A DNA stretch of 64,000 nucleotides from Gammaproteobacteria bacterium (GTDB taxonomy: Bacteria; Pseudomonadota; Gammaproteobacteria; Ga0077554; Ga007554): the NCBI GenBank assembly GCA_021731145.1, contig JAKFXX010000007.1, forward strand, positions 72,108 through 136,107, in the 5' to 3' direction. Both the position numbers and the translations under genes were made by a program. Positions 822 to 31,897 of the stretch are shown in pieces; position 1 is the first letter of the stretch, and every line of letters starts with the position of its first letter. The notes beneath the pieces are model-generated. The model saw nothing but the letters and a program-made list of their open reading frames with translations, did no database searches and was not told the DNA's origin.

Positions 822-2348
822 ATGAAATTGAATAAGCTTAATGTTGCATGCGCCCTGGCACTGACGGGTGTTTCTGGCCAGGCGCTGGCGCTGGGTGCGT
901 ATGATGCCCAGACCATCGGTTTGGTCAATGGCAAGGATTATGTGTATCTGTCGGGTGCTTCGGCCCCGCAAAATTTCCTGGGCACACTGGCTGGCCAGCT
1001 ATTTGAGACGGGCTATATCACCTATTACGACAACAACGGCACCGCCAGTGACTTCACCGATGATGGCAAGCTGTACCGTGCCTACTTCGGTCAGGTCAAA
1101 AATGATTCCAGCATCCCCGCCGCGTTCGCTGCTTTGAAGGGCAAAACCGTGCGCTTGCTGGATCGTGCCAAGGGTGGTTCGGTATGGGGTGTGAACCCCG
1201 TGGCGCGTGCCGAGGCCGTGGCCACGCTGAAGATGGATGCCGCCAGTTGCGTGCTGAACGCCGGTATATACCGTTGCGCCGAGGCGGGTGTGGATCCGGG
1301 TACGGCGGCTGACCCCACCAATCCCTTGTCTAATGCCAGTTACAACAAGGTGCCTGACGCTGGTGTCTCTGACGTGGCTCCTAACATGTTTAAAGGCCCC
1401 TTTAACGTGGAGTTTGGTTTTTCCGAGTTAAGCAGCGGGGAGGCCGCCAAGCTCACTTCGTTCCCCGTCAACACGCTGATGATGGGCCTGGCGGTAACCA
1501 ATGCCGTGCCAAACACCACCCATCTGAGCCGCGCCGCCTATGGCGGGATGTTGTCCGGACTGGTTCAGGATTGGACGCAGGTCAAGTCCAGCCTGGCGCC
1601 TGCCGCCGGCCCCCAGGTGGTGGTGTGCCGCCGGGTGCCCGGTTCGGGCACCCAGTCCAGCTATAACTGGTTCTTTAACAACTTCCCCTGCACCACGGAA
1701 TCTAAGGCAGGCAGCGGCGATACCGCGCCGGCACGCATGAGCGACAGCGCAAGCGGTGTTGTGAGCGGTTCAGGCACGGCGGCGGATCCTTTTGTGATCG
1801 ACCCCGCTGCGGGTTATACCGTGATCGAAAACTCCACTTCCGGCAACGTGCGTGATTGCTTGCAGAAGGCAAGCATCGGTGGCGTGCATACCTTTAAGGA
1901 TGAAGAAGGCAAGTTCTATAAGGTCGATTTCGGCGCGGGCGGTTACGGTGCGGTGGGCGTGCTGTCGTTAGACAGTTTTGGCAAGGAGTCGGGCTGGAGC
2001 TTCCGCAATATGGATGGCGCGGGTGACTATAAGCTGGTGTCTGGCAGCCCTGTCGTTACCGGCACGGGTGTCGCCCCCAGCAAGGCCAACCTGGTCGAAG
2101 GCAATTATGATTTTGCGGCGGAGCTCTCCATGCAATACCGTAATGCCACCGTCAACGGGGTTCCTGCATTGTCTGGTAATGCCAAGCTCTTTATGGACCT
2201 GTTCATTCAGCGCGGCGGTCATCCTGACTTCAACACCTCGGCCTGGACGGCGGCGCTGCCACCGACCTATAACCCTGCCACCAGCCCCAATGTCAGCAAG
2301 GCGACACGCGGTGGCAATATGTGCCAACCGCTGCAGCGCTTCTTCTAA
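822..2348 (+). CDS. Secreted protein of unknown function with a periplasmic-binding-protein-like (PstS/PBP-like) region
   Basis: ATG at 822 follows an aagagga RBS. Signal peptide MKLNKLNVACALALTGVSGQALA. SGASAPQNFL and RRVPGSGTQSSYNWFF resemble PstS-type binding-protein motifs. The functional call is weak. Confidence 0.6.
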   Translation: MKLNKLNVACALALTGVSGQALALGAYDAQTIGLVNGKDYVYLSGASAPQNFLGTLAGQLFETGYITYYDNNGTASDFTDDGKLYRAYFGQVKNDSSIPAAFAALKGKTVRLLDRAKGGSVWGVNPVARAEAVATLKMDAASCVLNAGIYRCAEAGVDPGTAADPTNPLSNASYNKVPDAGVSDVAPNMFKGPFNVEFGFSELSSGEAAKLTSFPVNTLMMGLAVTNAVPNTTHLSRAAYGGMLSGLVQDWTQVKSSLAPAAGPQVVVCRRVPGSGTQSSYNWFFNNFPCTTESKAGSGDTAPARMSDSASGVVSGSGTAADPFVIDPAAGYTVIENSTSGNVRDCLQKASIGGVHTFKDEEGKFYKVDFGAGGYGAVGVLSLDSFGKESGWSFRNMDGAGDYKLVSGSPVVTGTGVAPSKANLVEGNYDFAAELSMQYRNATVNGVPALSGNAKLFMDLFIQRGGHPDFNTSAWTAALPPTYNPATSPNVSKATRGGNMCQPLQRFF

Positions 2349-2427
2349 AAACGGGTATTCAGTGCCTGCGTAGTGGTGAATGTGCTGCACTCTGACGCAA
2401 TGTCAGTGTGTTGTATGATGTAAATGG

Positions 2428-2462
2428 CCGGCTCTTTTCGCAATGAGAAGAGCCGGTTTTTA
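2428..2462 (+). terminator. Rho-independent terminator
   Basis: Stem ccggctctt (2428-2436) pairs with aagagccgg (2448-2456) and is followed by a ttttt run, 80 bp after the stop at 2348. Confidence 0.7.
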
Positions 2463-2575
2463 TTTGGGTGTAGTGCGGGCCTTTTAAGCTCAGCGCCCTT
2501 TATTTTTCCTTTTAACTCATTTGTAACATTACCGTGTGAAAATCCCACCTTTAAATAAAACCAGAATATTACTCA

Positions 2576-4186
2576 ATGAAGCGTATTTTTTGTGCGGTGT
2601 TGTACGCCAGTTTTTTTTTCTGGTTTCCGGCGATGGCGCAAGAACAGGCCCCGGCCCCGGCAGAAGAGCAGCCGGTGGTGTTCGATGTGATGGAATACCG
2701 TGTGGAGGGCAACACGGTGTTGCCTGCCATAGTGATCGAGAAGGTGCTTTATCCGCATTTGGGCACGGCAAAAAAGATCGAGGACGTGGAAAAGGCGCGC
2801 GTTGATCTGGAGAAGGCCTACCGCGATGAAGGTTATCCCACCGTGCTGGTGGATATCCCCGAGCAGGATGTGAACAACCGGATGGTGCGCTTGCGCGTGA
2901 CGGAGAGCAAGGTCGAGAAGGTGCGTGTTGTCGGCTCCCGTTACTATTCGCAGGGGCGGATCCTGGAAAAATTCCCGGCGCTGACGCAGGGCGGTGTGCT
3001 GTATCTGCCGGATGTGCAGAAAGGCTTGAGCCGAGTCAACCGCAGCGCGGACCGGCGCGTGACGCCGATACTCAGGCCGGGCAAGACGCCAGGCACCGTG
3101 GAGGTTGATTTCAAGGTTGAAGACAAGCTGCCGCTGCATGCAAGCCTGGAATTGAATGACCGTTACAGCGGCAATACCAGCCCATTGCGGATGATCGGCA
3201 TGGTGCGCTATGACAATCTGTGGCAGCGAGAGCACAGCTTGAGTGTGCAATATCAGACCGCGCCGGAAAAGACCAGCGAAGTCAGTGTATTTTCCGCGTC
3301 TTATTTGTTGCCGGTGCCGGATTCCGACAGGTTGATCGCGATGTACGCCGTGCGTTCACGCAGCGATGTGGCGGCGGTGGGGAATATATCGGTGCTGGGT
3401 CAGGGTGATATTTTCGGCGTGCGCGCCATCCTGCCGCTGCCGCAGCGTGATCGCTTTTTTCATTCCTTGTCATTGGGCTTCGATTACAAGGATTTCAAGG
3501 AAAACGTGACACTGCTTGGCGCGGATTCCATCCGTACCCCGATCAGCTATTTGCCATTTACAGTGCAGTATAACTCGACTTTGCAGGGTGATAGCGGCGT
3601 GACGCAGGCGGATGTGGGGCTGAATTTTTCTGTCCGCGGCCTCGCCGACAACAGGATTGACTGTTTCGGGCAGCACGTTAACGAATTCGAATGCAAGCGC
3701 TATAACGCCAAGCCCAGTTATCTGTATCTGAAGGCCGGTTTGCAGCGCGTGCAACAGTTGCCGCTGGGTCTGCGGCTGATCGCGAGGATCGACGGTCAAT
3801 TGACGGGCCAGCCCCTGATCAGCAATGAGCAATTCGGCGCAGGCGGTGTTGAAAGCGTGCGCGGTTATCTGGAGTATGAGCGATTGGCGGATAACGGCGT
3901 GCGTGGCAGCGTGGAATTGCGCAGCCCCTCGGTTGCCGCGAAGTTGTCAAAGAAATTCGACGACCTGTATTTTCTCGGATTTGCGGAGGGCGCAAAGCTG
4001 CGTGTTAGTGAGCCCCTGCCGGGCCAGGTGTCACGTTTCAGTTTGTCCAGCGCGGGTGTTGGCGTGCGCTTTAAAGGTTGGCGTTACTGGAATGCGTCGC
4101 TCAATGTGGCGGTGCCGTTCGAGAATGCAGCCTTCACAAAGGCCGGGGATGTACGGGTGCATTTCCGGATGGCGTATGAATTTTAG
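2576..4186 (+). CDS. TpsB transporter (ShlB/FhaC/HecB-family outer-membrane hemolysin activation/secretion protein)
   Basis: Signal peptide MKRIFCAVLYASFFFWFPAMA. POTRA-type start VFDVMEYRVEGNTVL. Size 536 aa. Beta-barrel-like C-terminus ending in YEF. Lies immediately upstream of a TPS-domain exoprotein. Confidence 0.9.
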   Translation: MKRIFCAVLYASFFFWFPAMAQEQAPAPAEEQPVVFDVMEYRVEGNTVLPAIVIEKVLYPHLGTAKKIEDVEKARVDLEKAYRDEGYPTVLVDIPEQDVNNRMVRLRVTESKVEKVRVVGSRYYSQGRILEKFPALTQGGVLYLPDVQKGLSRVNRSADRRVTPILRPGKTPGTVEVDFKVEDKLPLHASLELNDRYSGNTSPLRMIGMVRYDNLWQREHSLSVQYQTAPEKTSEVSVFSASYLLPVPDSDRLIAMYAVRSRSDVAAVGNISVLGQGDIFGVRAILPLPQRDRFFHSLSLGFDYKDFKENVTLLGADSIRTPISYLPFTVQYNSTLQGDSGVTQADVGLNFSVRGLADNRIDCFGQHVNEFECKRYNAKPSYLYLKAGLQRVQQLPLGLRLIARIDGQLTGQPLISNEQFGAGGVESVRGYLEYERLADNGVRGSVELRSPSVAAKLSKKFDDLYFLGFAEGAKLRVSEPLPGQVSRFSLSSAGVGVRFKGWRYWNASLNVAVPFENAAFTKAGDVRVHFRMAYEF

Positions 4187-4209
4187 CCAGTGCTGAATCA
4201 ATAGTGGAT

Positions 4210-4262
4210 TGTAGGGTGCGTCCTACGCACCACAATCATTGGTGCGTAGGACGCACCCTACA
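4210..4262. repeat. Perfect 22-bp-stem REP-type hairpin (tgtagggtgcg family)
   Basis: tgtagggtgcgtcctacgcacc (4210-4231), loop acaatcatt, then ggtgcgtaggacgcaccctaca (4241-4262). Each arm is itself internally palindromic. Confidence 0.85.
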
Positions 4263-4283
4263 TAGAGCTGGGTTCAGTGCCAT

Positions 4284-4315
4284 TGTTGGGTCCGCTTCGC
4301 TTGACCCAACCTACA
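4284..4315. repeat. Second REP-type hairpin (tgttgggtc...gacccaacctaca family)
   Basis: gttgggtc (4285-4292) and gacccaac (4303-4310) form a perfect 8-bp inverted repeat around cgcttcgctt. Confidence 0.6.
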
Positions 4316-4346
4316 TTTTCTACTCTATTTTTCGGGGTATCACCAC

Positions 4347-7300
4347 ATGAATGCAAACTTGTTCCGGTTGGTTTTCAGTGCGCGGCTTGGCGCGCTGGTG
4401 CCGGCGTGGGAGGGCGCGCGGGCGCGTCGTGCGGGCAAGGGTGGGCAGCGTGGCCGGGCCGGCAAGCATGCCGCGTTGTTTGCAGGGGCGGCGGGTGTTT
4501 TGTTGTGCGTATTTCCAGTCCATGCAGAGTTGCCGATGCCGTGTGGCGGTGGTGCATGCGGTACGAATCCGATCAATACCCTGCCGTTTGCGAGCAGTGG
4601 CCGCGCCGATTTTTCCAGCAACGGCGTCAGTGCGATTATCAATCAGCTTGACCAAAGAGTCGTGCTGAACTGGCAAAGTTTCAATATCGGGGCCGGTAAC
4701 AGTGTTGAATTCAGGCAGCCGGATGCCGGTTCGGCGGCGCTGAACCGTATATGGCAGGGGTCGCCGAGCGAAATTCTTGGCAACCTGAAAGCCAATGGTC
4801 AGCTTTATCTGATCAATCAGAACGGTATTATTTTCGGCAAGGATGCTCAGGTGAATGCCAGCTCGCTGGTGGCATCGGCGCTGAATATCAGCGACGATGT
4901 TTTCAAAAATGGCGGTATTTACGGCGAGTCGTCGGGCGCAAACCCTGTGTTTACCTGGGAAGATGGCAGCGGGGTGGAATATTCCGCCAGCTTCATCCGG
5001 GTGGATAACGGCGCGAAAATCGCGTCCGCGTCCGGTGGCGTGGTCATGATGCTGGCACCCAAGGTGGAAAATCATGGCAGCATCTCCGCGCCGGGAGGGC
5101 AGGCGGTGCTTGCCGCCGGCGCCAAGGTGTACCTGAGCCTGTTGTCCGACAATGAGGTCAATGGCCTCCCCGCAGGTTCATCGCTGCGTGGCTTTGCCGG
5201 GTTGCTGGTGGAGGTTGACCCGCATGCCTCGGGGCTGGGCGGTGAAGTGACCAATATTGGCCAGATTGTCGCCGAGCGCGGCAATATTACCTTGGCTGGG
5301 CTGGCGGTAAACCAGATGGGGCGGGTTACCGCCACGACGTCGCTGCGGCAAAAGGGTTCGATCATGCTGCTGGCCGCCGATACCAAGGCGGGCGGTGACA
5401 AGACAAAGATTCCTGTCGGGCAGCGCACCGGTGCATTGGTGCTGGGCAAGGACAGCGTAACCGAGGTGTTGCCGGAGACGAATGATGCCACTACCAATTT
5501 CGACGGGCAGGGATTCAGTCCGTCCACGGTGGATCTGGCGGGCAAGAGTATTGAGATGCGGGAGAACGCCGCGATTGTCGCACCGGGCGGAAAAGTCAGT
5601 CTTGTTGCCCGTGAGGATCAGCGGTTACCCGTGCCCAGTGAAAGCAAGATTTATATGGCGCCCGGCAGCCGTATTGATGTATCCGGTACGAAAGATGTCG
5701 ATGTGCCCATGGAGCGCAACTTCATTGAGGTGGAGCTGCGTGGTAACGAGCTGAAGGATTCACCGCTGCAGCGCGATGGCGCGTTGCGCGGCAAAAAAGT
5801 GTGGATTGATATTCGCAAAGGCACACCGCTTGCAGATGTCTCCGGTTATACCGCCCAGGTGGGGAGAACGGTCGCGGAGCGTACCGCGGAAGGTGGTGAG
5901 GTGTCGCTGGTGTCCGCAGGCGATATCGTGATGCGTGAAAATGCTGTGATCGATGTCTCCGCGGGCGGGTTGCGTTATCGTGATGGGCAAGGCAAAACGA
6001 CGCAGTTGGTGTCGCAGGGCAGGGTGTATGACATAGGCGATGCGCCGGCCGATGTCATTTACGATGGCATTGCCAGTTTCACCAAGGAATCAAGAAAGTG
6101 GGGGATTACATCCACCTGGAGTGCCTTTGGTGGAGATGGCTCGCTGAGCCGGTTTGAGCAGGGCTATTACGAAGGCAAGAATGCAGGGTCGGTGACGTTT
6201 CTTGCGAGTGGGCTGGCACTGGATGGCACCTTGACGGGCAAGGCAGCCGCGGGCGTGCATCAGCGCGGCAGTGGCGTGCTGCCCCTGGGCGGGAAGTTTA
6301 CGCTAGGCGATGTCAGTCAGGCCGGGGCGTCTACGCCTGATTTCAGGATTCCGGATGTGCTCTTTTCCGCACAAAAAAATCCGTTGCCTGATGATTTTAC
6401 TTTCGATGAACTCAAGGCGAAGGGTTTGCCTGAAAGTTTCAGGAATCGCGTGACACTCTCCACCGGCGTGTTGCAAGCAGGGGGATTCAACCGTATTGGC
6501 GTATACAGCAACGGGCGCATCGAGGTGCCTAAAGGCGTGTCGATCAGTCTCGCGCCCGGCAGTTGGCTCGGAAAGGACGAGGAGGGGAAGGACAAGATAT
6601 ACACCGCCTCGCTGACACTGACCGGCAGAAAGCTGGATATCCTGGGCGATATCGATGTGCCGGCGGGCAAGATTACGCTGGCGAGCAAGAGAACGCTCGG
6701 CTCCGAGCTACTACAACAGGCGGAAGATTTTCGCGTCAATGTGGGCGCGGACGCCGGCATCACTGCCCGTGGTTTGTGGGTGAATGACTCGCGCTGGGTT
6801 ACGCCGGTAACGGGTGCGGACCCGTTGCTGATCAACGGCGGGTCGATTTCAGTAAGCGCCTTTTCAGATGTCGCACTGAGTTCCGGCAGCGTGCTGGATG
6901 TTTCCGGTGGGGGATGGGTGAAGCCCAATAACCGGCTACAGGTGGGCAACGCCGGTACCCTCAGTTTGGCAAGCGGCTCTTTTGTAAATATAAATAGACC
7001 TGATCGATTTGAATCAACACTCTATCTCGATGGCGAGCTCTACGGCTACGCACTGAGCAGCGGTAACACCGTGGGTAAGGGTGGCACGCTCTCGCTCAGC
7101 ACCTCCAGCGTAAAGATTGGCGGCACGCCTTCCCCTGTCCCCGGCGTATTATCACTTGCCACTGGCGTGTTTCAATCCGGCGGTTTCAAGGACTACACCA
7201 TTACCGGCATGGAGGGCGTTACCGTGAGCCGTGGCGCGCAAGTCGCTCCGCTTGCCGAGAGCCGGGTGCTGACGCCGGATTTTGTGACACGCCGCAGCGG

Positions 7301-10300
7301 TGCGGATATTGGCGGCTTCAGCCGGCGCCAGGTGTTGCTGCCAGAGCAGCGTGCGCCCGGCACCATCACCTTTGCCGCCGGAAGTTCCTTGTGGGGAGCT
7401 ATTTCGGTTGAGGAAGGCGCGCAGGTGCGCACCGATCCAGGGGGAACGATTACGCTCAGTGCAGGCAGCCAGATCAGCCTTTTTGGCGCGCTGGAAGCGC
7501 CCGCCGGGAAGATTTTGCTGGATATAAAAGGCTATGCCGTGAACGGGACATTCGAGCCTAACCGTTTCGTTTGGCTGGGGGGCAACAGCCGCTTATTGGC
7601 GCAGGGTTTCGCCAGAACCCAGACCAATAACCAGGGGCTGCTTCAGGGCGAGGTTCTGGCTGGCGGTGAGATTAACGTCAGCGCCCCGCAAGATACATAT
7701 CTTGTCGCCGAGGCGGGTTCGGTGATGGATGTTTCAGGGGTCAGCGCCACGCTGGATATTCCTCAGCAAAACAATGCCGGCGTGAGCTATCGCCGTGACA
7801 CGATTGCCGGGGATGCGGGCGTTGTTAATCTTGCCATGTCCAACATGTTGCTTGACGGCACATTAAAGGGTGCGGCCGCCGGGGAGCATGCGCGTGGTGG
7901 TTCGCTTATTCTGTCATCCCCCGTGATGGTGGTGAAAGAGGATGGCGCGTCGTTGCCGCAGGGTTTGACGCCCGGCCAGAATATCGCTGCCAAAATGCTT
8001 GAGCCTGCGGCAAGCGCCCTCCAGGGGAAGTCTTTCGTTACGGCAAAGTCGGTGCGTGATGGCGGCTTTGATCAGATCACCTTGACGAGCCTGAACACCA
8101 TTGAATTTGATGGCGATGTCAGCCTTGCGCTGCGGCGCAGCATCACGCTCGATGCGCCAACGATTGCGGCAAAGGAGAATGCCAAGGTTGATCTCGCGGC
8201 CAGTTATGTGTCTGTGGGCAATAGCTCGATTGTGAAGTCGGCATCATCGGGTGGCGGTGGAACGTTAGACGTCGATGCGCGCCTGATTGATCTGGAAGGT
8301 AATGTTGCGCTACAGGGTTTTGGCAATGTTAATTTGGCCAGCACCGGTGATATCCGGCTCAAGGGCGTGTTGCAGGGCAGCGATTTTCTTGCACGCACGC
8401 TGGAAGGCTCGCTTGTCACCGGCGGCAACCTGACGCTACAGGCTGACCAGATTTATCCCACCACCTTGAGTCAATTCCGGCTGGCCGTTGAAAATAATCC
8501 AACGGGCAGCGTGACGATCCTCGGTGGAGGCGCGCCCAGCCCGGTGTTGTCGGCGGGCGGCAAACTTACCGTGAATGCGCCAAACATTGTGCAGCAAGGG
8601 GTACTCAAGGCGCCGCTGGGTGACATCACGCTGGCAGCGGAAGATACGCTGACCTTGGGCGATGGCAGTATCACGTCGGTTTCGGCGGAGGGGCAGATCA
8701 TTCCCTTCGGCAAGACCGATCTGAACGGCAGCGATTATCTCTACCCGCTGGCAGCCGTCGATCTTCGGCTGGATGCGCCGCCTGAAAAGCGTATCCGGTT
8801 GAATGGCAAGGCGATCACGGTTTCAGAAAATGCCGTAGTGGATATCTCCGGCGGGGGCGATCTTTACGCCTATGAATTCATTCCGGGGCCGGGTGGATCC
8901 AGGGATGTGCTTGATGCGGCGAATGCGGGTGATGTTTTCGCCATTCTGCCGGGACGTGCATCTGAATTTGCACCCTATGACAGCCATTATTATCAGGGTA
9001 ACAAGGGAATCAAGCCGGGCGATAGTGTTTATCTATCCGGCGTGGAGGGCTTGCCGGCAGGTTTTTATGCCATGATGCCTGCCCGTTATGCCTTGTTGCC
9101 CGGCGCCTTTCTGGTGAAACCGGTCTCAGGGTATCAGGATATGTCGCCTGGCCAGGCTGTGAAATTGACCGATGGCGCAACCATTGTGTCAGGCTACCAC
9201 GCGGCCGTGGGCCTGGACGGCAGCATCCTGCGTGATGCCAGAACATCGGGTTTTGCCGTGCGCCCTGGCGCATCTGCGCGCACCCAATCGGAGTATCTGG
9301 ATAGCACCGCGAGCGGATTCTTCGCCAACAGCCCGGGCACCCAGCTATCGGGCGATGCAGGCAATCTCTCCATCGCCGCTACCCAGTCCTTAACGCTGAA
9401 TGGTGTGCTGAAAGGTGATCATGCCGCTGGGCGTAACGGCTCGGAAGTGGACATTACCGCCGACCGGCTGGCCATCGTAGGCGCAGGGGCAGACACGTCT
9501 GGTCTGGAGGGCTTCATGCAGCTTGATGCCGCCAGCCTGAACAAATTCAGCGCGTCCAGCCTGTTGTTGGGCGGTACCCGCAAGCGCACTGAAAAAGGCA
9601 TGGAAATCCGCATGGATGCACGGCAGGTTGTGGTCGCCAACACGGCATCCAGCGCGCTGCGTGGCCCTGAGGTTTTATTGGCCGCCAAGGATGAGGTCAG
9701 GGTAAAGGCGGGCAGCGTAGTGGAAGGCAAGGGCGCCGCTTCCGGCAAGCCCCAGGATATTGCCATCGGGTTCACGATCAGGGATACCGACAACGACGGC
9801 GTTATCGGCAAGGCGGACACCAATCGCGGTGATGTGAATCATGATGGCGTGATTGATGGGCAGGACAATGTGGACGGCAATGGCGCGCTGTTGCGCGTGG
9901 CGTCCGGTGAAGCGGTGGCGATAACGCGCGAGAGCGTTGATCGCAGCCAGGGTGATCTGGTGGTGGAGGCCGGCGCGGTGTTGCGGGCAGACAAGTCCAT
10001 GATATTGGACGCTACGCGTGACAACCGTTCAGAGGGCACGCTTGCATTGGGCGAAGGGGGCGCTTTGAGCGTGGGCGCGCAGCGCATCAGCCTGGGCGAG
10101 GCGGGCGATGTGCGGGAAGGGTTGGTGTTTTCCAATGCGCAGCTTGCCGCGCTGAATAACCTTGGCAGCCTGACACTGCGCAGTTATAGCGCGGTGGATA
10201 TTTATGGCGGGGGCGATTTCGGCAGCAAGGCACTGAAGAACCTTTCTATCGAAGCGGCGGGTTTCGGAGGTTATCAAAACGCAGGACAAACAGCGACGCT

Positions 10301-16743: not shown

Positions 16744-16783
16744 TACATGAACACATAAATTGTGCAGCGTAATGCCGCACGAT

Positions 16784-16831: not shown

Positions 16832-16892
16832 TGGGGTTCGGATCATGTTTCGTAATTTATAATTTCATGTGCTAGGACTGGAGGATAAAACG

Positions 16893-17297: not shown

Positions 17298-17336
17298 GAG
17301 CGCTATGCCAGGCTCGATTTTGTTGGGATGTAACGT

Positions 17337-18032: not shown

Positions 18033-18037
18033 GTCGG

Positions 18038-18058
18038 CAGGTAATGCCGGATTACCTG
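18038..18058 (+). terminator. Small hairpin after tonB (weak terminator candidate)
   Basis: caggtaat / attacctg forms a perfect 8-bp stem with a 5-nt loop. No clean T-run follows. Confidence 0.3.
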
Positions 18059-18121
18059 ATGATTTTCATCCCTCTGGGGTGAGGATTGAGATGAAAAATT
18101 CACAGTGAGAAGAACCTGGAA

Positions 18122-19660: not shown

Positions 19661-19717
19661 CCTGTGTATTTTTTAGAGTCACGGAACACGGCCGGGACCA
19701 GACAGGAGGTGAATGTC

Positions 19718-21162: not shown

Positions 21163-21359
21163 AACATCCTTAGCAGTCCTTCCTCTCGGGAAAGCCGCGC
21201 CTTTTTACCCCCTCCTCCTTTGGCTGATAGCCCATAAATTATTCGGCCGCTGTACGTAATCAGATTGTCATATTGACGGACTATTATTGCCCCCAGGTTA
21301 CATAGCTTTTAACGCCAGCGCATCCTTAATAACCGGCACTGCATTCTACGGAGATTAAC

Positions 21360-22133: not shown

Positions 22134-22185
22134 TGGCTGTTTTACTTACGAGATGAGTCCTCAGAGTAAGTGATATTTGATTTGT

Positions 22186-25097: not shown

Positions 25098-26034
25098 TCT
25101 GTTTGACAGTATTGCACCGCGCTCTAAAGCCGTTTTTGGAATCGGCATCGGCAGGGATCGTCTTTCTGCCGCGCATGTTGTTACTACAAAACAGGCGAGA
25201 CATATCGAACGGATCAGGCAGATAAATCTGCCTTTCACACTATTCAGTGGCACCCCTACGCCCGAGATAGGTCATGGGCTTTCATCCTTGTTGGGCGAGT
25301 TATGCGGTGAAGTCAAAAGGTCGCATATTCCCATTCAGATCGCATTGCCTGACCCGGTGGTGAGCTTGCGTGTCTTCGAGTTGGGTGCCATTCCTAAAAC
25401 CAGAAAAGAGCAACTGGCGCTTGTCCACTGGCGGTTCAACAAGGAGTTGAATTTGGGGGGGCGCGCCATTGAATGCAGTTGCCAGCCTTTGGGCGTGGAT
25501 AACGACAAACATCTCTTGTTGGCGATGGCTATCGATCAGGCTTGGTTGGATTGCCTGAAGGAGGCGTGCCGGGACGCGGGTGTGATCAGTACGGTCATCG
25601 ACATGGCGGCGTGTTATCGCTCTAACCGTTTTTACGAACGCTTCTCTTGCGATGGCGCCGATGTAGTTGTTATTTCATTGGATGACGACGCCTGGACAGT
25701 GTCCATTTCGGACGCGCAAGGCCGTTTACGCTTTGTCCGCTCGCGTTGGCGTGAAACCATGCCGGAGCGGGAGAGGGAATATCAGGAAATAGCCGCCGAG
25801 TCAGAAAAGATGGTGCGCCTCTATGCGCATGCCGCCCCTGGCCGGAGCATAAAAAACATACACGCAATAGGTGATGCCAAGGATGTCTCTGGGGTCGCGG
25901 ATTTATTGGATCAACGCATGGCGGGGAAATGTATCAGGGTGGCCGGAGGAGTCGAGTTTATATCTAAGCAAGGCGTGTCCGGAAATACTGTAGACAGTAT
26001 GGTGTCAACCCTGTCGGCAACGGTGTTGCGATGA
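25078..26034 (+). CDS. PilM/GspL-like cytoplasmic assembly protein (actin-like fold inferred)
   Basis: Position and size fit. N-terminus AVFGIGIGRDRLSAAHVV resembles the PilM phosphate-1 strand. GTG start overlaps the gspE end. Confidence 0.45.
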   Translation: MSLSLNNLFDSIAPRSKAVFGIGIGRDRLSAAHVVTTKQARHIERIRQINLPFTLFSGTPTPEIGHGLSSLLGELCGEVKRSHIPIQIALPDPVVSLRVFELGAIPKTRKEQLALVHWRFNKELNLGGRAIECSCQPLGVDNDKHLLLAMAIDQAWLDCLKEACRDAGVISTVIDMAACYRSNRFYERFSCDGADVVVISLDDDAWTVSISDAQGRLRFVRSRWRETMPEREREYQEIAAESEKMVRLYAHAAPGRSIKNIHAIGDAKDVSGVADLLDQRMAGKCIRVAGGVEFISKQGVSGNTVDSMVSTLSATVLR

Positions 26035-26573
26035 AAATCATAACGAATTTTTCGACGTCATCCGCTGGCATGGCGCCGCGGATCATGATGATATTGTGGG
26101 CAACGGCGTTGCTGGCCGCGCTGTTAGCCGCTGGGATGGCTATGCAAACATCCCAATTGAAACAGACGAAGCTGGACTTGGAGCGTCAATTGTCAAAACT
26201 CCAAAACAGGCACGTCGCTGGGATCCCGAAAGTATTTCCCCGTCATGAAGAGCTTGTCACGTTAAAGAAGCGCATAGACGCTGTTTCATCCATATCAAAT
26301 AGTGGGGAAGGGTCACTATCCGCGTTCCTGAGAAAAATAGAGCTGCTATTGCCTGACGAAGCCTATCTTGTGACACTTCACTACAAGGGAGATACCAGGG
26401 AGGCTCAGATTACGGCTGAGGCAGGCAGCGCAAAAATACTTACCGGTTTTTTGCGTGATCTTGAAAAAGAGAAAAGCTTCCTTGAAGTTTTGCTGACAAA
26501 ACAGTCGCAGCGCACATTGAACGATAAGCAGATTGTTCAGTTCGATCTGCGTATAAAGGAGCGTCTTTCATGA
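26031..26573 (+). CDS. PilN/GspL-C-like bitopic inner-membrane assembly protein
   Basis: Single TM IMMILWATALLAALLAAGMA followed by a coiled segment and a ferredoxin-like-sized periplasmic domain. 4-bp overlap with neighbours on both sides. Confidence 0.5.
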   Translation: MKIITNFSTSSAGMAPRIMMILWATALLAALLAAGMAMQTSQLKQTKLDLERQLSKLQNRHVAGIPKVFPRHEELVTLKKRIDAVSSISNSGEGSLSAFLRKIELLLPDEAYLVTLHYKGDTREAQITAEAGSAKILTGFLRDLEKEKSFLEVLLTKQSQRTLNDKQIVQFDLRIKERLS

Positions 26574-27139
26574 AGGCGACGCATCCTTTTGCGGAAAACA
26601 TATGGTATTCGCTACGCCATCCCCTGATCAAGGCGGGGATGGCGGCTAGCGGGGCCGCCATAACCCTGGCCATTGTAGTCTGTTTTGGATATTGGATGCC
26701 CGTGCGTAACGATATCAACAGCCTCTCTGAATCGGTTAATCTCGAACGTAAGCGGATTGTTGATGATACGCGTTCCGTGCAAATTTATAACGCATATTTG
26801 AGCGCTATAAAACAGCTTTCGGCCATTGATAAAAAAATTAACAGCCCTGCCGGTCATGCAGATCTTGTGAATAATATTGATAGTATCGCAATACAAAGAA
26901 AAGTAACGATTATTTCTGAATCCTACGATGAGGGTAAAGAAAGGAATGGTTACACGTCGCTGTATATGGAGTTGGCATTACAGGGAGACTATCAGGGGCT
27001 GAATGAATTTCTTGTTGATATTCGTGGCCTGCCAACCTGGACTGTTGTTGGGGAAGGGTCGATAAGCCGCTTGGCAGGACAGCAGGATTTGGTTAAGGCG
27101 CAATTGCGTTTAATAACTTATCACAAGACGGGAATATGA
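26570..27139 (+). CDS. PilO/GspM-like bitopic inner-membrane assembly protein
   Basis: Single TM AASGAAITLAIVVCFGYW, a coiled segment and a periplasmic domain. Translationally coupled to neighbours. Confidence 0.5.
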   Translation: MKATHPFAENIWYSLRHPLIKAGMAASGAAITLAIVVCFGYWMPVRNDINSLSESVNLERKRIVDDTRSVQIYNAYLSAIKQLSAIDKKINSPAGHADLVNNIDSIAIQRKVTIISESYDEGKERNGYTSLYMELALQGDYQGLNEFLVDIRGLPTWTVVGEGSISRLAGQQDLVKAQLRLITYHKTGI

Positions 27140-27768
27140 AAAGTTACAAGGAAGTAGCCATCAGACATCGCAATGCAATATTGCTGGTGATGGCTTTTGT
27201 CTTGATGGCCGCCAACGTATTGAATTGGGGCGCATGGGGTCAGGTCAATTCTCGGGAAGCGCCTGGAAGGGGATCAACGGCAGGGGGGTTCCAGGTTTCT
27301 GATTTTCAGATAAAAAATATGAATGTGCCTGAGGAGAAAGATAGCGCGATTGGCCGTGACTTGTTCTATCCTGTTTTTGAAGAATATTCAGAACCTGTTA
27401 AAGAAATAACATCCATTGCGGAGGATAATGAAAATATTAAACAAATAACTGATGCCGAGATACCTCCTCCCCTTCCGCAAAAAACTCCTGAACAACTTGA
27501 AGAGGAGATCGCACGGTCCGATGCCGCTAATTTTAAATATATTGGTACGATTTGGCGTGGAGGACAAGGCCAGGCGCTTTTGGTGAACACGGACAAGCGT
27601 TATTTCGTCTTTTCTGGAGACAAGGCAGGCAGCCGATTCGTTGTTGAAATGATAACGAACGACGCGGTCTCTCTAAGAGACCCTGTCACAAACGTGACGG
27701 CTCAAGTACTAATATCGGGAGGACCCGCATTAAAAGCGGCTCAAGAGACAAGTGACATTGAAAGATAG
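27136..27768 (+). CDS. PilP/GspC-HR-like protein
   Basis: N-terminal TM AILLVMAFVLMAANVL. C-terminal beta-sandwich-like FKYIGTIWRGGQGQALLVN...GDKAGSRFVVEMITNDAVSLRD. Lies immediately upstream of the secretin. Confidence 0.45.
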   Translation: MKSYKEVAIRHRNAILLVMAFVLMAANVLNWGAWGQVNSREAPGRGSTAGGFQVSDFQIKNMNVPEEKDSAIGRDLFYPVFEEYSEPVKEITSIAEDNENIKQITDAEIPPPLPQKTPEQLEEEIARSDAANFKYIGTIWRGGQGQALLVNTDKRYFVFSGDKAGSRFVVEMITNDAVSLRDPVTNVTAQVLISGGPALKAAQETSDIER

Positions 27769-27774
27769 CGTAAA

Positions 27775-30057
27775 ATGAAACCGATAAAAAAAATAATATG
27801 TTATTTCATGGTGGTAGTGTTGTGCCTGTTGGTTGCATCTTGTGCCGGTCCGATTCGAAAGGCGGAAAACTATGAGGATAAACAGGAATGGATAAATGCG
27901 GTAATTGAGTACCGAAAGGCCTATAACGATGAGCCAAGGAACGTGGAATATAAGTCACGTCTGAAGCATGCCGAATTCAAGGCGGCCGACTATTATTACC
28001 ATCAAGGTATGCTACTTTTGGAGCGGGAAAAAATCGATGAAGCCATAGTTCAACTCCAGCAGGGCTTGACTGCAATGCCCGGTGATGAGCGGCTAATGCA
28101 GGCGATGAACAAAGCGCTTTCAAAAAGAGAGGCCAACAATCTTTATCAAGAAGGAGTTCTGATAGAAGGCGCGGGCAATGCCGACGAAGCGAAGCGCATA
28201 TTCCAAAGGGCCGTAAATGTCTATCCTGATCACAAAGCGGCATCAGAGGCCCTTGCCAATCTTGAAAATAAAAAAATCAAGGAGCGTGATACCGAGAAAT
28301 TCTCGTTGACTTCAGCATCCCCCATTTCGCTGAATTTCCGTCAAGCCGATATGCGCTCAGTTTTTGAGTTCGTTGCCAAATCATTTGGCATAAATATCAT
28401 ATTTGATGAGGCCATCAAGACCATATCCCCCGTCACGGTATTTGCCAAGGATGTTTCCTTCGAGCAAGCTTTGGCCCTGATTAATGTGGCAACCAAAACC
28501 TTCTATAAGAAAATCAGCAAAAATACCATCATAATTGTGCCGGATTCAAAGGACAAGCGTGGTCAATATGAAGATCATATGATGCGTACCTTTTATTTGA
28601 GCACTGTCCGGGCCAAGGAGGCGGCGGATATCCTGAGAGGTGTGATGACAATAAGGAAAATGATCGTCAACGAACCGTTAAATACGCTGGTTGTCCGTGA
28701 TACCGAGGAAGTTATCAGGCAGGTGGAAAAGATTATTGATGTAAACGACAGAAAGCCCGCTGAAATAGTTCTGGAAGTTGAGATCCTGGAGATGAATCGC
28801 ACCAAGGCAGAGCGTCTTGGCCTTGATCTTGGGTCGTATCAAATCAGCGCTGCGGTTCCGTCAGCCATCGCCCTGAGTGGATCCATTAGCGGCGCGATTG
28901 AGAAGGCTTCGCTACTTACGCTTCCTTCGGCGACCTTCAGGTTTTTTAAGCAGGATGTAGATGCCAGGACGCTTGCCAATCCCAAGGTAAGGGTTGTGAA
29001 CGGAAAATCCGCAAAAATCCATATTGGCGACCGTGTGCCGTTACGTGTTTCCACGATCATCAATACGACGGGGCAGGTGAACACAACTTATGATTACAAA
29101 GACATTGGTATAAAGCTTAGCGTTGAACCAACCATAAATCTGGACAATTCATCATCAGTAAAGCTTGGTTTGGAAGTGAGCTCCCTGGGGGCTAATCTGG
29201 GAACGGCGACAGAGCCGGCATTCCTTATCGGTAGCCGAAATGCTGAAACTTTTATGCTGTTGCGTGATGGTGAAACAGCGATTCTGGGCGGTCTTATTCG
29301 TGATGAGGATCGCAAGACGGTAGTAAGGGTTCCATTACTGGGAGACATTCCTGCCGCAGGTTCTCTATTTAGTTCTTACGATATGTCGAAGGGGCGCACC
29401 GACGTGTTGTTGACCATCACGCCTCGTGTTGTGCGAGGCTGGGATCTGCCCGCCAAGGAAGTCCGCCAGTTTTATTCTGGCACCGAAGATAAATATCTTG
29501 ATCAAGCGCCCTTTCAGAGCCTCGCTTCTCCATCATCGGCTGCGGTAAAGGAGGATGCCGGGATTCAGGAGTCCCCGCAGGCACCTGTTAACGAAAGTCC
29601 GGCGGCACCCCCATTGCCAGGCCAGTCGATTGCGCCAGGTATTGGGGGGAATGTTATCCAGTCTCCCGCGCTCGGCTTTTCTAAGCCAGCTTATATGGTC
29701 ATCAATCAAGATGAGGTGGATGTTCAGATTCTTTTTGACAACCTCGCAAAAAACAGGGAGATCGCCACGGAAATACAATTCAATTCAAAGGTGCTGGAAT
29801 TTGTCGGGGGTGATGCGGGCGAATTCAAAGTTGGTTTTTTTCAGGCCGACAAAAATGAGGCAGGAGATGCTGTACGTCTAAGCGCCGGGCTTGCAAATGA
29901 TGCCGTCTCGAAAGAGAAAGGTATTCTGGCAACCCTCCGGTTCCGTGCCTTGAAGCCAGGTGTTTCTGCTCTCACGTATGGTGCCTCATCGGTCAAAAAT
30001 GCGGCGGGTGACATCATTAATCCACAGTCAAATATCTCACGTGTCATTGTACGCTAG
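27775..30057 (+). CDS. gspD: Secretin (GspD/PilQ family) lipoprotein with N-terminal TPR module and C-terminal cohesin-like domain
   Basis: Lipobox LLVASCAG. TPR-like repeats (YRKAYNDEPRN..., AKRIFQRAVNVYPDHKAA). N-domain ISLNFRQADMRSVFEFVAKSFGINIIFDE. Secretin core RVPLLGDIPAAGSLFS. Pro-rich linker. C-terminus EIQFNSKVLEFVGGDAGEF...GILATLRFRALKPGVSAL. Confidence 0.9.
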   Translation: MKPIKKIICYFMVVVLCLLVASCAGPIRKAENYEDKQEWINAVIEYRKAYNDEPRNVEYKSRLKHAEFKAADYYYHQGMLLLEREKIDEAIVQLQQGLTAMPGDERLMQAMNKALSKREANNLYQEGVLIEGAGNADEAKRIFQRAVNVYPDHKAASEALANLENKKIKERDTEKFSLTSASPISLNFRQADMRSVFEFVAKSFGINIIFDEAIKTISPVTVFAKDVSFEQALALINVATKTFYKKISKNTIIIVPDSKDKRGQYEDHMMRTFYLSTVRAKEAADILRGVMTIRKMIVNEPLNTLVVRDTEEVIRQVEKIIDVNDRKPAEIVLEVEILEMNRTKAERLGLDLGSYQISAAVPSAIALSGSISGAIEKASLLTLPSATFRFFKQDVDARTLANPKVRVVNGKSAKIHIGDRVPLRVSTIINTTGQVNTTYDYKDIGIKLSVEPTINLDNSSSVKLGLEVSSLGANLGTATEPAFLIGSRNAETFMLLRDGETAILGGLIRDEDRKTVVRVPLLGDIPAAGSLFSSYDMSKGRTDVLLTITPRVVRGWDLPAKEVRQFYSGTEDKYLDQAPFQSLASPSSAAVKEDAGIQESPQAPVNESPAAPPLPGQSIAPGIGGNVIQSPALGFSKPAYMVINQDEVDVQILFDNLAKNREIATEIQFNSKVLEFVGGDAGEFKVGFFQADKNEAGDAVRLSAGLANDAVSKEKGILATLRFRALKPGVSALTYGASSVKNAAGDIINPQSNISRVIVR

Positions 30058-30538
30058 GAAATACAAACTCCTGGGAGTCACCTTCGTCGAGTTGCTGGTG
30101 ACGCTGGTGATTCTTTCGATTCTCGCGGCGGTTGCATTGCCTTATGCAGAAATTACGGTGCGCCGCAATAAGGAGATTGAATTGCGCCAGGCACTGCGTG
30201 ATATGCGCAGTGCCATTGACCGTTTTCATCTGGACTGGGAAACGGCAAAAATATCGAAATTGGATAATGATGTTAGCGAAAATGGTTACCCAAAAAAATT
30301 GCAAGTATTGGTTGAAGGAGTGGGGTCTGCCCAGGCCAAAGGGACAAAGATTAAATACTTGCGCCGAATTCCTGCCGACCCGTTCTCCGGCCCTGACAAG
30401 CCGTCACTGGAGCACTGGGTGCTGCGCGGTTATCAGGATGCGTCCGATGCCACCTCGTGGGGAGGAACGGATGTTTACGATGTACGGTCATTAAGCCGTC
30501 GCAAGGCGATTGACGGCAGCTTCTACAAGGATTGGTGA
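30041..30538 (+). CDS. GspG-like pseudopilin 1
   Basis: Prepilin motif KLLG/VTFVELLVTLVILSILAAVALP with Glu at +5. GTG at 30041 gives a 12-aa leader; the ATG at 29960 would give an implausible 39-aa leader inside the secretin gene. GspG-like YPKKL...RRIPADPFSG. Confidence 0.7.
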   Translation: MSLYARKYKLLGVTFVELLVTLVILSILAAVALPYAEITVRRNKEIELRQALRDMRSAIDRFHLDWETAKISKLDNDVSENGYPKKLQVLVEGVGSAQAKGTKIKYLRRIPADPFSGPDKPSLEHWVLRGYQDASDATSWGGTDVYDVRSLSRRKAIDGSFYKDW

Positions 30539-30539
30539 C

Positions 30540-30917
30540 ATGCGCCGCAGTATTGTCCACAAGGCGCGCGGCTTTACCTTGGTGGAGCTGATGGTGGTGC
30601 TGGTTTTGATTGTTATACTTGCCAGTCTCGCAGCACCCTTGGTAACCAGCTCAATACAGCGCGGCCGTGAAGCTGTGCTCAAGGAAGATTTATTAGTGAT
30701 GCGTAAAGCAATTGATGATTACTATGCGGATACGGGAAATTATCCGGAGGATATCAAGCAACTGATGGAAAAACGTTATCTGAGGAAAATTCCTGTTGAT
30801 CCTTTAACTGAACGCAGTGATACGTGGCGTGAGGTTCGTGATGATGCGGGGATTGTTGATATAAAAAGTGGAGCGGATGGAAAATCCGCCAATGATGAGT
30901 CATACAGCGAATGGTAG
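30540..30917 (+). CDS. GspG-like pseudopilin 2
   Basis: Leader MRRSIVHKARG/FTLVELMVVLVLIVILASLAAP with Glu at +5. AIDDYYADTGNYPEDIKQL...RKIPVDPLT. Confidence 0.85.
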   Translation: MRRSIVHKARGFTLVELMVVLVLIVILASLAAPLVTSSIQRGREAVLKEDLLVMRKAIDDYYADTGNYPEDIKQLMEKRYLRKIPVDPLTERSDTWREVRDDAGIVDIKSGADGKSANDESYSEW

Positions 30918-30957
30918 TTTATTGTCTTAATCTTAATTTGATGTGAGAGGCTGGTCT

Positions 30958-31392
30958 ATGAAAAAGAGCATGAGATGGTCTTCGGGTTTTACCATGATGG
31001 AGTTGCTGATTGTTCTGGTTATTATCGGATTGTTAGCGGCTTTGGTGGGTCCTGCATTGTTCCAGCGCATCAATCCGGCAAAACAATCGGCGGCGCGCAG
31101 TCAGATTGAAAATTTCATGACAGCTCTCGACACCTATTTTGTAGATAACGGACACTTTCCAACGACACAACAGGGTTTTTTGGCGCTTCGTGTTAAACCG
31201 GAAGGTGATGAAAAGTGGGCGGGGCCTTATCTTAAAAAAGACGTGCCAAACGATCCATGGGGAAATCCATACCAATACCGCGCTCCTGGACACAATGGTG
31301 GCTACGATATTTTATCTCTGGGCGCGGATGGTAAAGAGGGTGGCGAAAATGAAAATATGGATATCAATAGCTGGGAGATCGACAAGAAATAA
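30958..31392 (+). CDS. gspG: Type II secretion major pseudopilin GspG
   Basis: A gagagg RBS precedes the start. MKKSMRWSSG/FTMMELLIVLVIIGLLAALVGP. Canonical GspG body ARSQIENFMTALDTYFVDNGHFPT...GPYLKK..PNDPWGNPYQYRAPGHNGGYDILSLGADGKEGG. Confidence 0.95.
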   Translation: MKKSMRWSSGFTMMELLIVLVIIGLLAALVGPALFQRINPAKQSAARSQIENFMTALDTYFVDNGHFPTTQQGFLALRVKPEGDEKWAGPYLKKDVPNDPWGNPYQYRAPGHNGGYDILSLGADGKEGGENENMDINSWEIDKK

Positions 31393-31897
31393 TCATGATG
31401 GATTTACCTATATCATGGTGCTGGTCGCGGTTGTAATAACCGGCCTGATGGCAGGTGTTGCAGCCACCATCGCATCGCGGGTTATGCAGGCCGAGAGAGA
31501 GAAGGAATTGCTTTTCCGTGGCATGGCTTATCAGAATGCGATAAAAAGCTATTATCAGGCTGGCGCGCAACTTAATACGTTTATCTTTCCGCGCTCGTTA
31601 AACGATTTGCTGAATGACCCGCGCTTTCCCGGCAAACATCATATTCGTGCTCTGTATGTGGACCCAATGGGGAAAGGACGGCGGGAGTGGCGCGTGATCC
31701 GTTCAATTGATGGCGGTATCGCCGGCGTTGTCAGCTCAAGCAAACAAAAATCTTTAAAGACCGCCAACTTCCCCGCTGGACTGGAATCTCTGGCGGGCAA
31801 GAAGTCCTATGCGGAATGGGTTTTTCAGTACAACGCTCCCGCAGCAATCCAAACTCCACGTTCCGTCATGCCACGTGTACCTGTGCAGCAGAAATAG
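31349..31897 (+). CDS. Atypical pseudopilin lacking Glu5
   Basis: Candidate leader MKIWISIAGRSTRNNHDG/FTYIMVLVAVVITGLMAGVAA has Met, not Glu, at +5. GspG-like AIKSYYQAG...LNDPRFPG. The start is uncertain and overlaps the gspG end. Confidence 0.6.
   Translation: MKIWISIAGRSTRNNHDGFTYIMVLVAVVITGLMAGVAATIASRVMQAEREKELLFRGMAYQNAIKSYYQAGAQLNTFIFPRSLNDLLNDPRFPGKHHIRALYVDPMGKGRREWRVIRSIDGGIAGVVSSSKQKSLKTANFPAGLESLAGKKSYAEWVFQYNAPAAIQTPRSVMPRVPVQQK

Follow-up and report, generated by a model that had tools for sequence, protein, structure and literature searches.

A gammaproteobacterial envelope gene block in which a conserved two-partner secretion/Ton-like motor unit lies beside an autonomous type IV filament cassette

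Two-partner secretion (TPS; type V secretion) is, in the textbook account, self-sufficient, and is believed to work without an energy source at the outer membrane. [quoted passage not shown] There pdtA (PA0690) is transcribed from its own promoter and phdA-pdtB-exbB2-exbD2-tonB4-PA0696-PA0701 forms a single transcript (PMC4971064), the locus being switched on by phosphate starvation via PhoB and the extracytoplasmic function (ECF) sigma factor VreI (PMC4971064, PMC7035377, PMC9769906). The products of PA0696 to PA0699 have been labelled, in turn, putative outer-membrane porin, secreted protein, YbjN-family protein and PpiC-type isomerase, and the ExbB2-ExbD2-TonB4 system has been described as still uncharacterized (PMC7035377). 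Homologues of the TPS, ExbBD and PA0696 genes occur together in P. fluorescens, P. entomophila, Burkholderia vietnamiensis, Rhodopseudomonas palustris as well as Janthinobacterium, with Hxc-like T2SS genes nearby in two of these species (Llamas et al., PMC2729926). In Haemophilus influenzae too, in the HxuA/HxuB/HxuC system, the genes of a TPS pair are coupled to an outer-membrane step energised by TonB (PMC4873976, PMC5422565). Here we analyse a block of 21 envelope genes at positions 822-31897 of a 64,000-nucleotide stretch of DNA from a gammaproteobacterium (contig JAKFXX010000007.1; the whole stretch is hereafter the window), in which a TPS pair with a Ton-like motor is followed by a machine resembling T2SSs and type IV pili (T4P).

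The six-frame list of open reading frames (ORFs) gives the 21 envelope ORFs as an unbroken series, starting at 786 or 822 and lying entirely on the plus strand. Nearly every family label that an initial annotation, made from the letters of the DNA, had attached to them was upheld by Pfam and NCBIfam profile scans with curated cut-offs, which provide the family assignments used throughout. The same annotation saw in the block three machines that may cooperate and held that no characterised system combines all three; the PA0674-PA0701 region does set them next to one another (PMC2729926, PMC7035377). In our analysis the TPS genes and the Ton-like motor form one unit (module A, 2576-20416) and the T2SS/T4P-like genes a second (module B, 22177-31897), and the block as a whole is probably a mosaic of independently inherited units sharing only a cell-envelope theme. 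Each part is of an already known kind and the combination has its precedent in P. aeruginosa; here it resolves into independent modules.

The two-partner secretion and Ton-like motor unit

A one-genome-per-species scan with the DUF2341-LamG-ExbB fusion protein of module A found a relative in at least 581 species genomes; the best 80 loci were taken with 10-kb flanks and searched by tblastn with all window proteins, informative loci only being counted. Downstream of the ExbB fusion, ExbD was present in all 62 loci, Porin_5 in 61/62, the TonB-like gene in 57/62 and that for the coiled-coil protein in 56/62, with all four in the window order in 51/62, while TpsA or TpsB stood immediately upstream on the same strand in 62 of 65 loci. 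The expectation that the TPS pair and the Ton-like motor, porin and coiled-coil protein make up one unit is thus borne out, about 60 of the 62-65 informative loci being syntenic, and module A is a strongly conserved unit. The loci are drawn from Beta-, Gamma- and Alphaproteobacteria, Verrucomicrobiota and Methylomirabilis, the named genera being Bradyrhizobium, Rhodopseudomonas, Methylosinus, Magnetospirillum, Burkholderia and Steroidobacter. Module A has an SLT lytic transglycosylase gene as a companion in 20 species loci (numbered here with the prefix L: L001 15428-16039, L057 17401-18258 and 18 more), a combination that fits the assembly of a trans-envelope, peptidoglycan-crossing structure, and YbjN and PpiC genes follow module A in alphaproteobacterial, Burkholderia and Verrucomicrobiota loci; the window contains no SLT, YbjN or PpiC gene. 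One Gallionellaceae locus (L027, 11733-15901) carries two ExbD genes in tandem, and its Porin_5 ORF runs to 874 amino acids, much more than the usual 512-570.

Module A opens with the outer-membrane transporter TpsB (2576-4186; POTRA_2 54.1 bits, ShlB 42.1 bits), which ends 160 bp upstream of tpsA (4347-14711). The 3454-amino-acid TpsA has an extended signal peptide (ESPR, 27.5 against a cut-off of 25 bits), a TPS domain (PF05860, 82.6 against 33.5 bits), a long Gly/Ala-rich body and a C-terminal DUF3739; a TPS-domain TpsA beside an Omp85-type TpsB with POTRA domains is the arrangement of two-partner (type Vb) secretion. TpsA is collinear over its full length, at 37-39% identity, with homologues of 3270-3580 amino acids, and is an orthologous giant protein rather than a variable toxin carrier; a scan of the tpsA DNA for tandem repeats found none of note.

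The motor subunit (14950-16743) combines a signal peptide, DUF2341 and Laminin_G_3 (LamG) domains and a MotA_ExbB domain of the TolQ/ExbB type with three transmembrane (TM) helices (96.7 bits, above the Pfam cut-off). An AlphaFold2 model built from 20 homologues (mean pLDDT 73.6) has a signal peptide, two beta-sandwiches (residues 50-365, pLDDT 85-94) and a three-helix membrane domain. Foldseek matched the C-terminal part to TolQ of Escherichia coli and Acinetobacter in the cryo-electron microscopy structures of TolQRA/TolQR (target-normalised TM-scores of 0.67-0.78, those for E. coli TolQ being 0.71-0.78) and the beta-sandwiches to generic lectin-like jelly rolls. The ExbD/TolR protein (16893-17297; PF02472, 97.8 bits) keeps the TM aspartate and is 60-86% identical across loci, and the TonB-like protein (17337-18032) consists of an N-terminal TM helix, a proline-rich linker and a TonB C-terminal domain (TonB_2 39.4 bits; TIGR01352, 32.5 against a cut-off of 27.1 bits). 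By their Pfam scores the genes thus provide both an ExbB-ExbD stator and a TonB with a proline-rich linker, the parts of a Ton system. The NCBIfam equivalog models all remain below cut-off (tolQ 134 against 221, exbB 69 against 206 and tolR 94 against 127 bits), and none is reached for ExbD either. Module A is therefore like Tol-Pal and Ton in its TolQ/ExbB-like channel domain, its ExbD/TolR with the TM aspartate and its TonB-type C-terminal domain, but unlike them in the periplasmic DUF2341-LamG extension of about 350 residues fused to its stator and in that profile scans find no TolB/Pal and no TonB-dependent receptor in the block. E. coli TonB and TolA carry a histidine in the TM helix; the TM helix of the TonB-like protein (window 17337-17480) contains none, and its coupling to the stator may differ from that of E. 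coli TonB/TolA.

The outer-membrane protein of the unit (18122-19660) belongs to Porin_5 (PF16930, 583 bits, E 8e-175). Its N-terminal helical segment is followed by a strand-like motif, VRVPYV, which is the most conserved N-terminal element among 78 homologues and a candidate TonB-contact site; in Pfam scans the protein matches Porin_5 only, with no Plug or TonB_dep_Rec domain. The secreted coiled-coil protein that completes the unit (19715-20416; signal peptide) occupies the position of PA0697 and found no family match in profile scans. Homologue lengths favour the later of the available starts for ExbB (14950), ExbD (16893), the coiled-coil protein (19715) and the pseudopilins of module B (30008, 30540, 30958 and 31349). 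A literature search on DUF3739, Porin_5, DUF2341 or cohesin-bearing secretins returned nothing specific, and the supplements of a paper on MotAB evolution list no DUF2341 proteins.

TpsB, ExbB, ExbD, TonB, porin and secreted protein are ordered in the P. aeruginosa locus as in module A, with a giant TpsA nearby, and there too a T2SS lies next door (PMC2729926, PMC7035377). That module A is the counterpart of pdtA/pdtB-exbB2-exbD2-tonB4-PA0696-PA0697 has good support in gene order, domain content and the literature statement on homologous loci. The Rhodopseudomonas locus L057 runs TpsB, DUF2341-ExbB, ExbD, TonB, Porin_5 (714 bits), coiled-coil protein, PpiC, YbjN, SLT and TpsA (identified by its TPS domain), and the Burkholderia locus L058 has a Phd_YefM-domain ORF upstream and coiled-coil, YbjN and PpiC genes in order downstream; both series mirror PA0691-PA0699 (PMC7035377) and so support this counterpart status. 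Unlike the P. aeruginosa locus, the window is without the vreAIR sigma/anti-sigma genes, a Pho box, phdA, YbjN and PpiC, its tpsA sits between tpsB and exbB, and its neighbouring machine is a PilMNOP/MshE-type cassette whereas that of P. aeruginosa is the classical Gsp-type Hxc. Profile scans of the 64-kb window, which do not cover DNA before position 1, found no ECF sigma or FecR gene. A Pho-box scan of the window (CTGTCATN4CTGTCAT, up to three mismatches) gave 4 matches against 4.2 expected, none of them in promoter position; since Pho boxes are at the chance level, the phosphate control described for P. aeruginosa is not transferable to the window locus.

These observations bear on the alternative that module A serves capture and import in the manner of HxuCBA, TpsA binding an external resource, perhaps phosphate-containing or mineral, and the motor opening the Porin_5 barrel. 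The Hxu operon, in which TPS genes and a TonB-dependent receptor stand together and all three proteins are needed for haem uptake (PMC4873976, PMC5422565), provides the precedent, but HxuC is a canonical TonB-dependent receptor using the housekeeping TonB, whereas module A has its own ExbB-ExbD-TonB set, a Porin_5 barrel that has neither plug nor receptor domains and a TpsA about four times larger. For the P. aeruginosa counterpart phosphate starvation is the inducing signal, and the PstS-family phosphatases LapA and LapB are its neighbours (PMC7035377, PMC2225411, PMC9769906), yet the Pho boxes of the window are those expected by chance; a secreted, weakly PBP_like_2-like protein is encoded upstream in the window, but its gene is not conserved with module A. 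The common neighbours of module A, namely polysaccharide-export/PEP-CTERM loci, PpiC, YbjN and SLT, point instead to surface-matrix assembly, and we regard capture and import as a serious but unlikely alternative.

An autonomous type IV filament cassette

Module B is a self-contained cassette, autonomous from module A. Full-length homologues of its TPR-secretin are numerous, at 50-57% identity, and three homologue contigs (L088-L090) carry an identical 11-gene series around it, made up of GspF, GspE (with MshEN), a protein of 305-315 amino acids, PilN, PilO, a protein of 139-174 amino acids, the TPR-secretin and four genes in prepilin position, whose products are of 168-172 amino acids, of 125-145 amino acids, GspG, and of 176-183 amino acids. 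The contexts of these three cassettes are unrelated (rpoZ-spoT, trehalose genes and EamA transporters), and for 10 kb around them all three are free of TPS and Ton genes. A metagenome scan anchored on the secretin yielded 80 further loci, with 24 contigs long enough for comparison and 19 contigs extending at least 8 kb upstream. The full cassette was present in order on 19 of the 24 contigs, and ten of its eleven genes on three more, but module-A genes stood upstream on just one of the 19 contigs with that much upstream DNA (L091, 86% identical and from the window's own lineage), the other 18 being without TPS/Ton genes.

Seen from module A, a GspE-type ATPase of any kind occurred within about 9-10 kb downstream in 6 of 58 loci and was absent from the remaining 52. 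The six (L001, L006, L007, L009, L010 and L027) belong to a Gallionellaceae-type clade, in which module A and SLT are followed by GspG-GspF-GspE and then small proteins (L001 16355-21791); this GspF is about 31% identical to that of the window, while between the PilMNOP-position proteins no similarity can be detected. In L086, the sister of the pair formed by the window and L004 (76% ExbB identity), type VI secretion system (T6SS) genes are found where module B would be. Module-A loci with an adjoining T2SS-like set thus belong to two separate clades with different T2SS-like variants, so that on at least two occasions different machines came to adjoin module A, and the adjacency is not retained, which argues for juxtaposition rather than obligate partnership. 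Of the three cooperating machines first proposed, the TPS/Ton-like part holds together in this gene-neighbourhood check, while the T2SS/T4P-like machine with its secretin cassette is not syntenic with it (1/19, 6/58, and T6SS genes in L086).

The same counts make it improbable that all three machineries are integrated, with the T2SS/T4P-like machine exporting, anchoring or decorating TpsA and the Ton-like motor energising the process. DUF2341/LamG domains are also present in MshQ, a protein of the mannose-sensitive haemagglutinin (MSHA) pilus, and the window genes share one strand, are tightly packed and have no strong terminator at 19.6-22.2 kb. A different T2SS-like set directly after module A in the Gallionellaceae clade could likewise be read as a sign of integration, but its PilMNOP-position proteins bear no detectable similarity to those of the window and its GspF only that of about 31% identity. 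The Hxc T2SS adjoins pdtAB-exbB2D2 and is co-regulated with it (PMC2729926, PMC7035377). Set against this, the window's own lineage alone has module A among the 19 contigs that carry the cassette and reach at least 8 kb upstream of it, 52 of the 58 module-A loci have no GspE-type ATPase downstream, and the closest outgroup, L086, has T6SS genes instead.

The cassette of the window begins, as in L088-L090, with a GspF/PilC platform protein (22177-23382; T2SSF 180 bits), followed by a GspE/MshE-type assembly ATPase (23379-25097; T2SSE 435 bits) with a predicted c-di-GMP-binding N-terminus. The latter matches MshEN (PF05157, 58.3 bits) and the c-di-GMP-binding motif model NF053729 (43 against a cut-off of 38 bits) and contains the motif RLGE(I/V)LL twice as well as a Walker A motif. 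Four translationally coupled genes (25078-27768) then encode a PilM-position protein of 318 amino acids, PilN (33 bits), PilO (21.6 bits) and a PilP-position protein of 210 amino acids. Next comes a lipoprotein (27775-30057) in which profile matches place TPR, N0/secretin_N and secretin domains and a C-terminal cohesin; the cohesin match (PF00963) reaches 24.6 bits against a cut-off of 24.1 only when the secretin C-terminus is scanned alone, and is precomputed in four homologues. The secretin has a lipobox, LVASC (27775-27850), whose Cys23 does not vary among 20 homologues, which points to a secretin that is lipidated and self-piloting; in this the module-B secretin resembles HxcQ, a self-piloting liposecretin. 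The last four genes (30008-31897) encode prepilin-type proteins starting at about 30008, 30540, 30958 and 31349 (N_methyl and T2SSG matches), start codons having been picked to match homologue lengths. The third is GspG (164.8 against a cut-off of 88.85 bits) and is the sole module-B protein above its subtype-specific cut-off; below theirs are GspD (163 against 351), PilQ (151 against 284), MshL (82.8 against 250), GspE (540 against 630) and PilB (559 against 676 bits), and the GspF model is also below.

Module B is like other members of the type IV filament superfamily (PMC6668835) in its GspE/MshE ATPase with MshEN, its GspF, PilN, PilO and secretin, and its GspG with three minor pseudopilins. 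Unlike the classical T2SS (Gsp), the cassette has no GspC/L/M, PilN and PilO being found there instead, and unlike the type IVa pilus it has no PilT-type second ATPase, its PilB and PilQ scores are below cut-off and its major subunit is of the GspG type. The MSHA pilus shares an ATPase with an N-terminal MshEN domain, but here MshL is below cut-off, there is no MshM-type ATPase, and TPR is fused to the secretin with no separate MshN. In contrast to all three systems, the cassette is without a prepilin peptidase and has its secretin fused to both TPR and cohesin. By these comparisons module B fits no named subtype of type IV filament.

Linker genes, borders and composition of the block

Two genes lie between the modules. 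The first (20473-21162) encodes a CPBP/Rce1-like intramembrane protease that matches TIGR03008, the CAAX-protease of PEP-CTERM loci (241 against a cut-off of 81 bits), with its EExxxR, FxxxH and HxxxN motifs intact; the second (21360-22133) encodes a thioredoxin/DsbA-like lipoprotein with a lipobox and a CPFC site (Thioredoxin_4 118 bits). On L004, a contig of a metagenome-assembled genome with about 92% nucleotide identity to the window, a clean 660-bp deletion takes out the CPBP gene (window 20536-21199 against L004 9511-9517), which is thus a presence/absence polymorphism between close relatives. A thioredoxin-like lipoprotein is found beside either module on the same strand only in L004 and L091, with one opposite-strand match in L054. 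Both linker genes are dispensable, accessory to both modules and specific to the window lineage.

The CPBP gene has a counterpart in exopolysaccharide (EPS) loci that adjoin module A elsewhere. In the Sulfuriferula locus L021 the series runs coiled-coil gene, EpsD isomerase, CPBP, EpsL, EpsE and EpsF, and in L024 and L032 CPBP is followed by EpsL. Module A abuts XrtB/PEP-CTERM EPS-type loci in L021 (15970-21247), L024 (15687-17581), L032 (6991-8888) and L084 (16988-21824), PEP-CTERM-type export genes lying downstream of module A in the last, and in about 17 of the 80 loci the gene set after module A includes an EpsE-like export gene, which is commoner there than any T2SS-like machine. The window shares with these EpsD-CPBP-EpsL-EpsE-EpsF loci a TIGR03008 protease and a PEP-CTERM protein, but profile scans find no exosortase, EpsL, EpsE or EpsF in its 64 kb, and its CPBP gene has the look of an isolated remnant or edge.

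The PEP-CTERM sorting-signal protein (12-602, plus strand; PF07589, 22.7 against a cut-off of 20.7 bits) lies outside the block and directly upstream of it, as initially annotated, and its C-terminus is matched by several NCBIfam PEP-CTERM models. The first gene of the block (822-2348), which forms its own transcription unit, encodes a protein of 508 amino acids that had been described as PBP-like and secreted. Its signal peptide bears out secretion, but the PBP label is weak, the match to PF12849 (PBP_like_2) being sub-threshold at 22 bits against a cut-off of 27, and we leave the family unassigned. It was also considered as a PstS/DING/LapA-like protein and rejected, a sequence search of the Protein Data Bank having returned no PstS/DING structure or other relevant relative; a single-sequence AlphaFold model was unusable (pLDDT 31). 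In tblastn searches against the fetched loci the gene was absent from every related module-A locus. It is followed by an intrinsic terminator (2426-2458, plus strand; 15-bp stem then T-run, -23.9 kcal/mol, z -5.2), and the block is therefore not one transcription unit or operon.

Several inverted repeats punctuate the region. Between the PEP-CTERM gene and the first gene lies an imperfect hairpin of about 157 nucleotides (609-765), composed of three nested inverted repeats (609-619/755-765, 643-660/736-753 and 667-689/714-736) and matching no Rfam family. The tpsB-tpsA gap holds a perfect 22-23-bp REP-like hairpin (4210-4262; -50.9 kcal/mol, z -9.8) without a T-run, a related copy of which, with three mismatches, occurs at 60872-60893, and the exbB-exbD gap has a TGTAGG...CCTACA palindrome at about 16784-16830. 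The palindromes resemble REP-type elements and may attenuate or stabilise transcripts. A scan of the whole window at Rfam gathering thresholds found no riboswitch or small RNA, and a sigma-70 promoter scan did not rise above the shuffled expectation and was uninformative.

The packing of the block is as first described, with gaps of 39-227 bp in the proximal half and a tight distal half, where the junctions from GspF to the secretin range from 4-bp overlaps to a 6-bp gap, that between GspE and the PilM-position gene being a 20-bp overlap. The stop of the last gene, psp4 (31895-31897), is 2 bp from the end, at 31900, of the convergent topA ORF (31900-34236, minus strand; profile match), a neighbour outside the system, and profile scans agree with the flanking core of topA-smg-dprA and def-fmt-rsmB. 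The abutment of the block on topA, to which the initial annotation had drawn attention, is not conserved. On contig L091, here 87-88% identical to the window, nucleotide homology ends exactly at the psp4 stop (window 31897, L091 14122) and no topA, smg or dprA follows; the abutment is confined to this genome, and the junction is a recent rearrangement point. Cumulative GC skew rises steadily over 1-46 kb and the plus strand is probably the leading strand; since a leading strand favours same-strand runs, the shared orientation of the 21 genes is weak evidence of functional unity.

GC content is 46-53% at 16-32 kb against 55-60% upstream and 58-64% downstream, the lowest-GC genes being PilO, that for the 210-amino-acid protein and the pseudopilins (GC3 0.42-0.47). 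The drop begins inside module A, at ExbD/TonB and away from any module border, and it was therefore rejected as proof of horizontal transfer. That the block arrived recently and in its entirety as a genomic island inserted beside topA, its modules travelling together as mobile DNA, has little probability: GC at 16-32 kb does differ from the 57-64% on either side, L091 synteny breaks exactly at the psp4 stop and REP-like palindromes occupy intergenic gaps, but no integrase, transposase or tRNA is among the annotated genes, the GC drop starts within module A and module A is vertically widespread in related Betaproteobacteria. A second low-GC patch (50000-52600, about 50%) contains a minus-strand gene (51487-52503) with HATPase_c_2 and STAS-like DUF4325 domains, flanked by ribonucleotide reductase/TSCPD on one side and an IclR regulator on the other.

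A proposed mechanical role for the motor and its implications

Gene content, the synteny of module A, the autonomy of module B and the domain folds are observed here; the direction of energy flow, the partner of the TonB-like protein and the effect on TpsA are what we infer. In the mosaic that we favour, the first gene is a stand-alone secreted-protein gene with its own terminator, and TpsB would export the 3454-amino-acid TpsA fibre. A dedicated, proton-driven TolQ/ExbB-ExbD stator, bearing a periplasmic lectin-like crown of DUF2341-LamG domains, would act through the proline-rich TonB-like protein to exert force at the outer membrane, where the Porin_5 barrel and the presumably periplasm-spanning coiled-coil protein would be the likely partners. 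The energised step would then act on the TpsA/TpsB complex, in anchoring, release or remodelling of the fibre, or, less likely, import something captured by the fibre; SLT, PpiC and polysaccharide loci as neighbours and a Porin_5 protein without receptor features lead us to lean towards mechanical handling of the fibre. Independently of module A, the MshE-type, predicted c-di-GMP-binding ATPase, GspF and the PilMNOP-like proteins of module B would assemble a GspG-type pseudopilus beneath the self-piloting TPR-secretin-cohesin lipoprotein.

Several points weigh against this account. The absence of a strong terminator between the coiled-coil gene, the CPBP gene, the thioredoxin-like gene and GspF (19.6-22.2 kb) makes co-transcription of the two modules possible in this organism. 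Machines of the T2SS type have come to lie beside module A at least three times, in the window lineage, in the Gallionellaceae clade and, as Hxc, in Pseudomonas/Burkholderia (PMC2729926), and such repeated adjacency could hint at a loose functional link. The target of the motor is inferred: Porin_5 shows no recognised plug or barrel domain of TonB-dependent receptors, and the TM helix of the TonB-like protein is without the histidine of E. coli TonB. Equivalence with PA0690-PA0699, though well supported, draws on gene order, domain content and the literature rather than on a direct alignment with PAO1, and a homologue search with the ExbB fusion of Ketobacteraceae (Pseudomonadales) gave no named Pseudomonas protein among the best 120 matches.

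A bolder proposal, which we put forward tentatively and consider less probable than not, is that module A is one trans-envelope machine, in which a motor with five lectin-like DUF2341-LamG domains, acting via Porin_5 and the coiled-coil protein, mechanically works TpsA. If this were true, TpsA would be held, tensioned, released or retracted in an energised form of type Vb secretion, and the independent parking of T2SS/T4P machines and PEP-CTERM loci beside module A would reflect a common matrix-building programme.

What the window contributes is a member from the environment and a clear outline of the conserved core rather than a new three-machine system. Of interest are, on the one hand, the breadth and rigidity of the coupling between TPS, motor and Porin_5 and the DUF2341-LamG crown of the stator, and, on the other, a type IV filament cassette, widespread and without a name, whose lipoprotein combines TPR, secretin and cohesin domains. 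Across several phyla the genes of a TPS pair are firmly joined to those of a Ton/Tol-like motor of its own, a Porin_5 barrel and a coiled-coil protein, and the sole studied example, PdtAB with ExbB2-ExbD2-TonB4 and PA0696-PA0699 of P. aeruginosa, is relevant to infection (PMC7035377). Establishing the effect of the motor on the fibre would start a new chapter both for type V secretion and for Ton-like motors.

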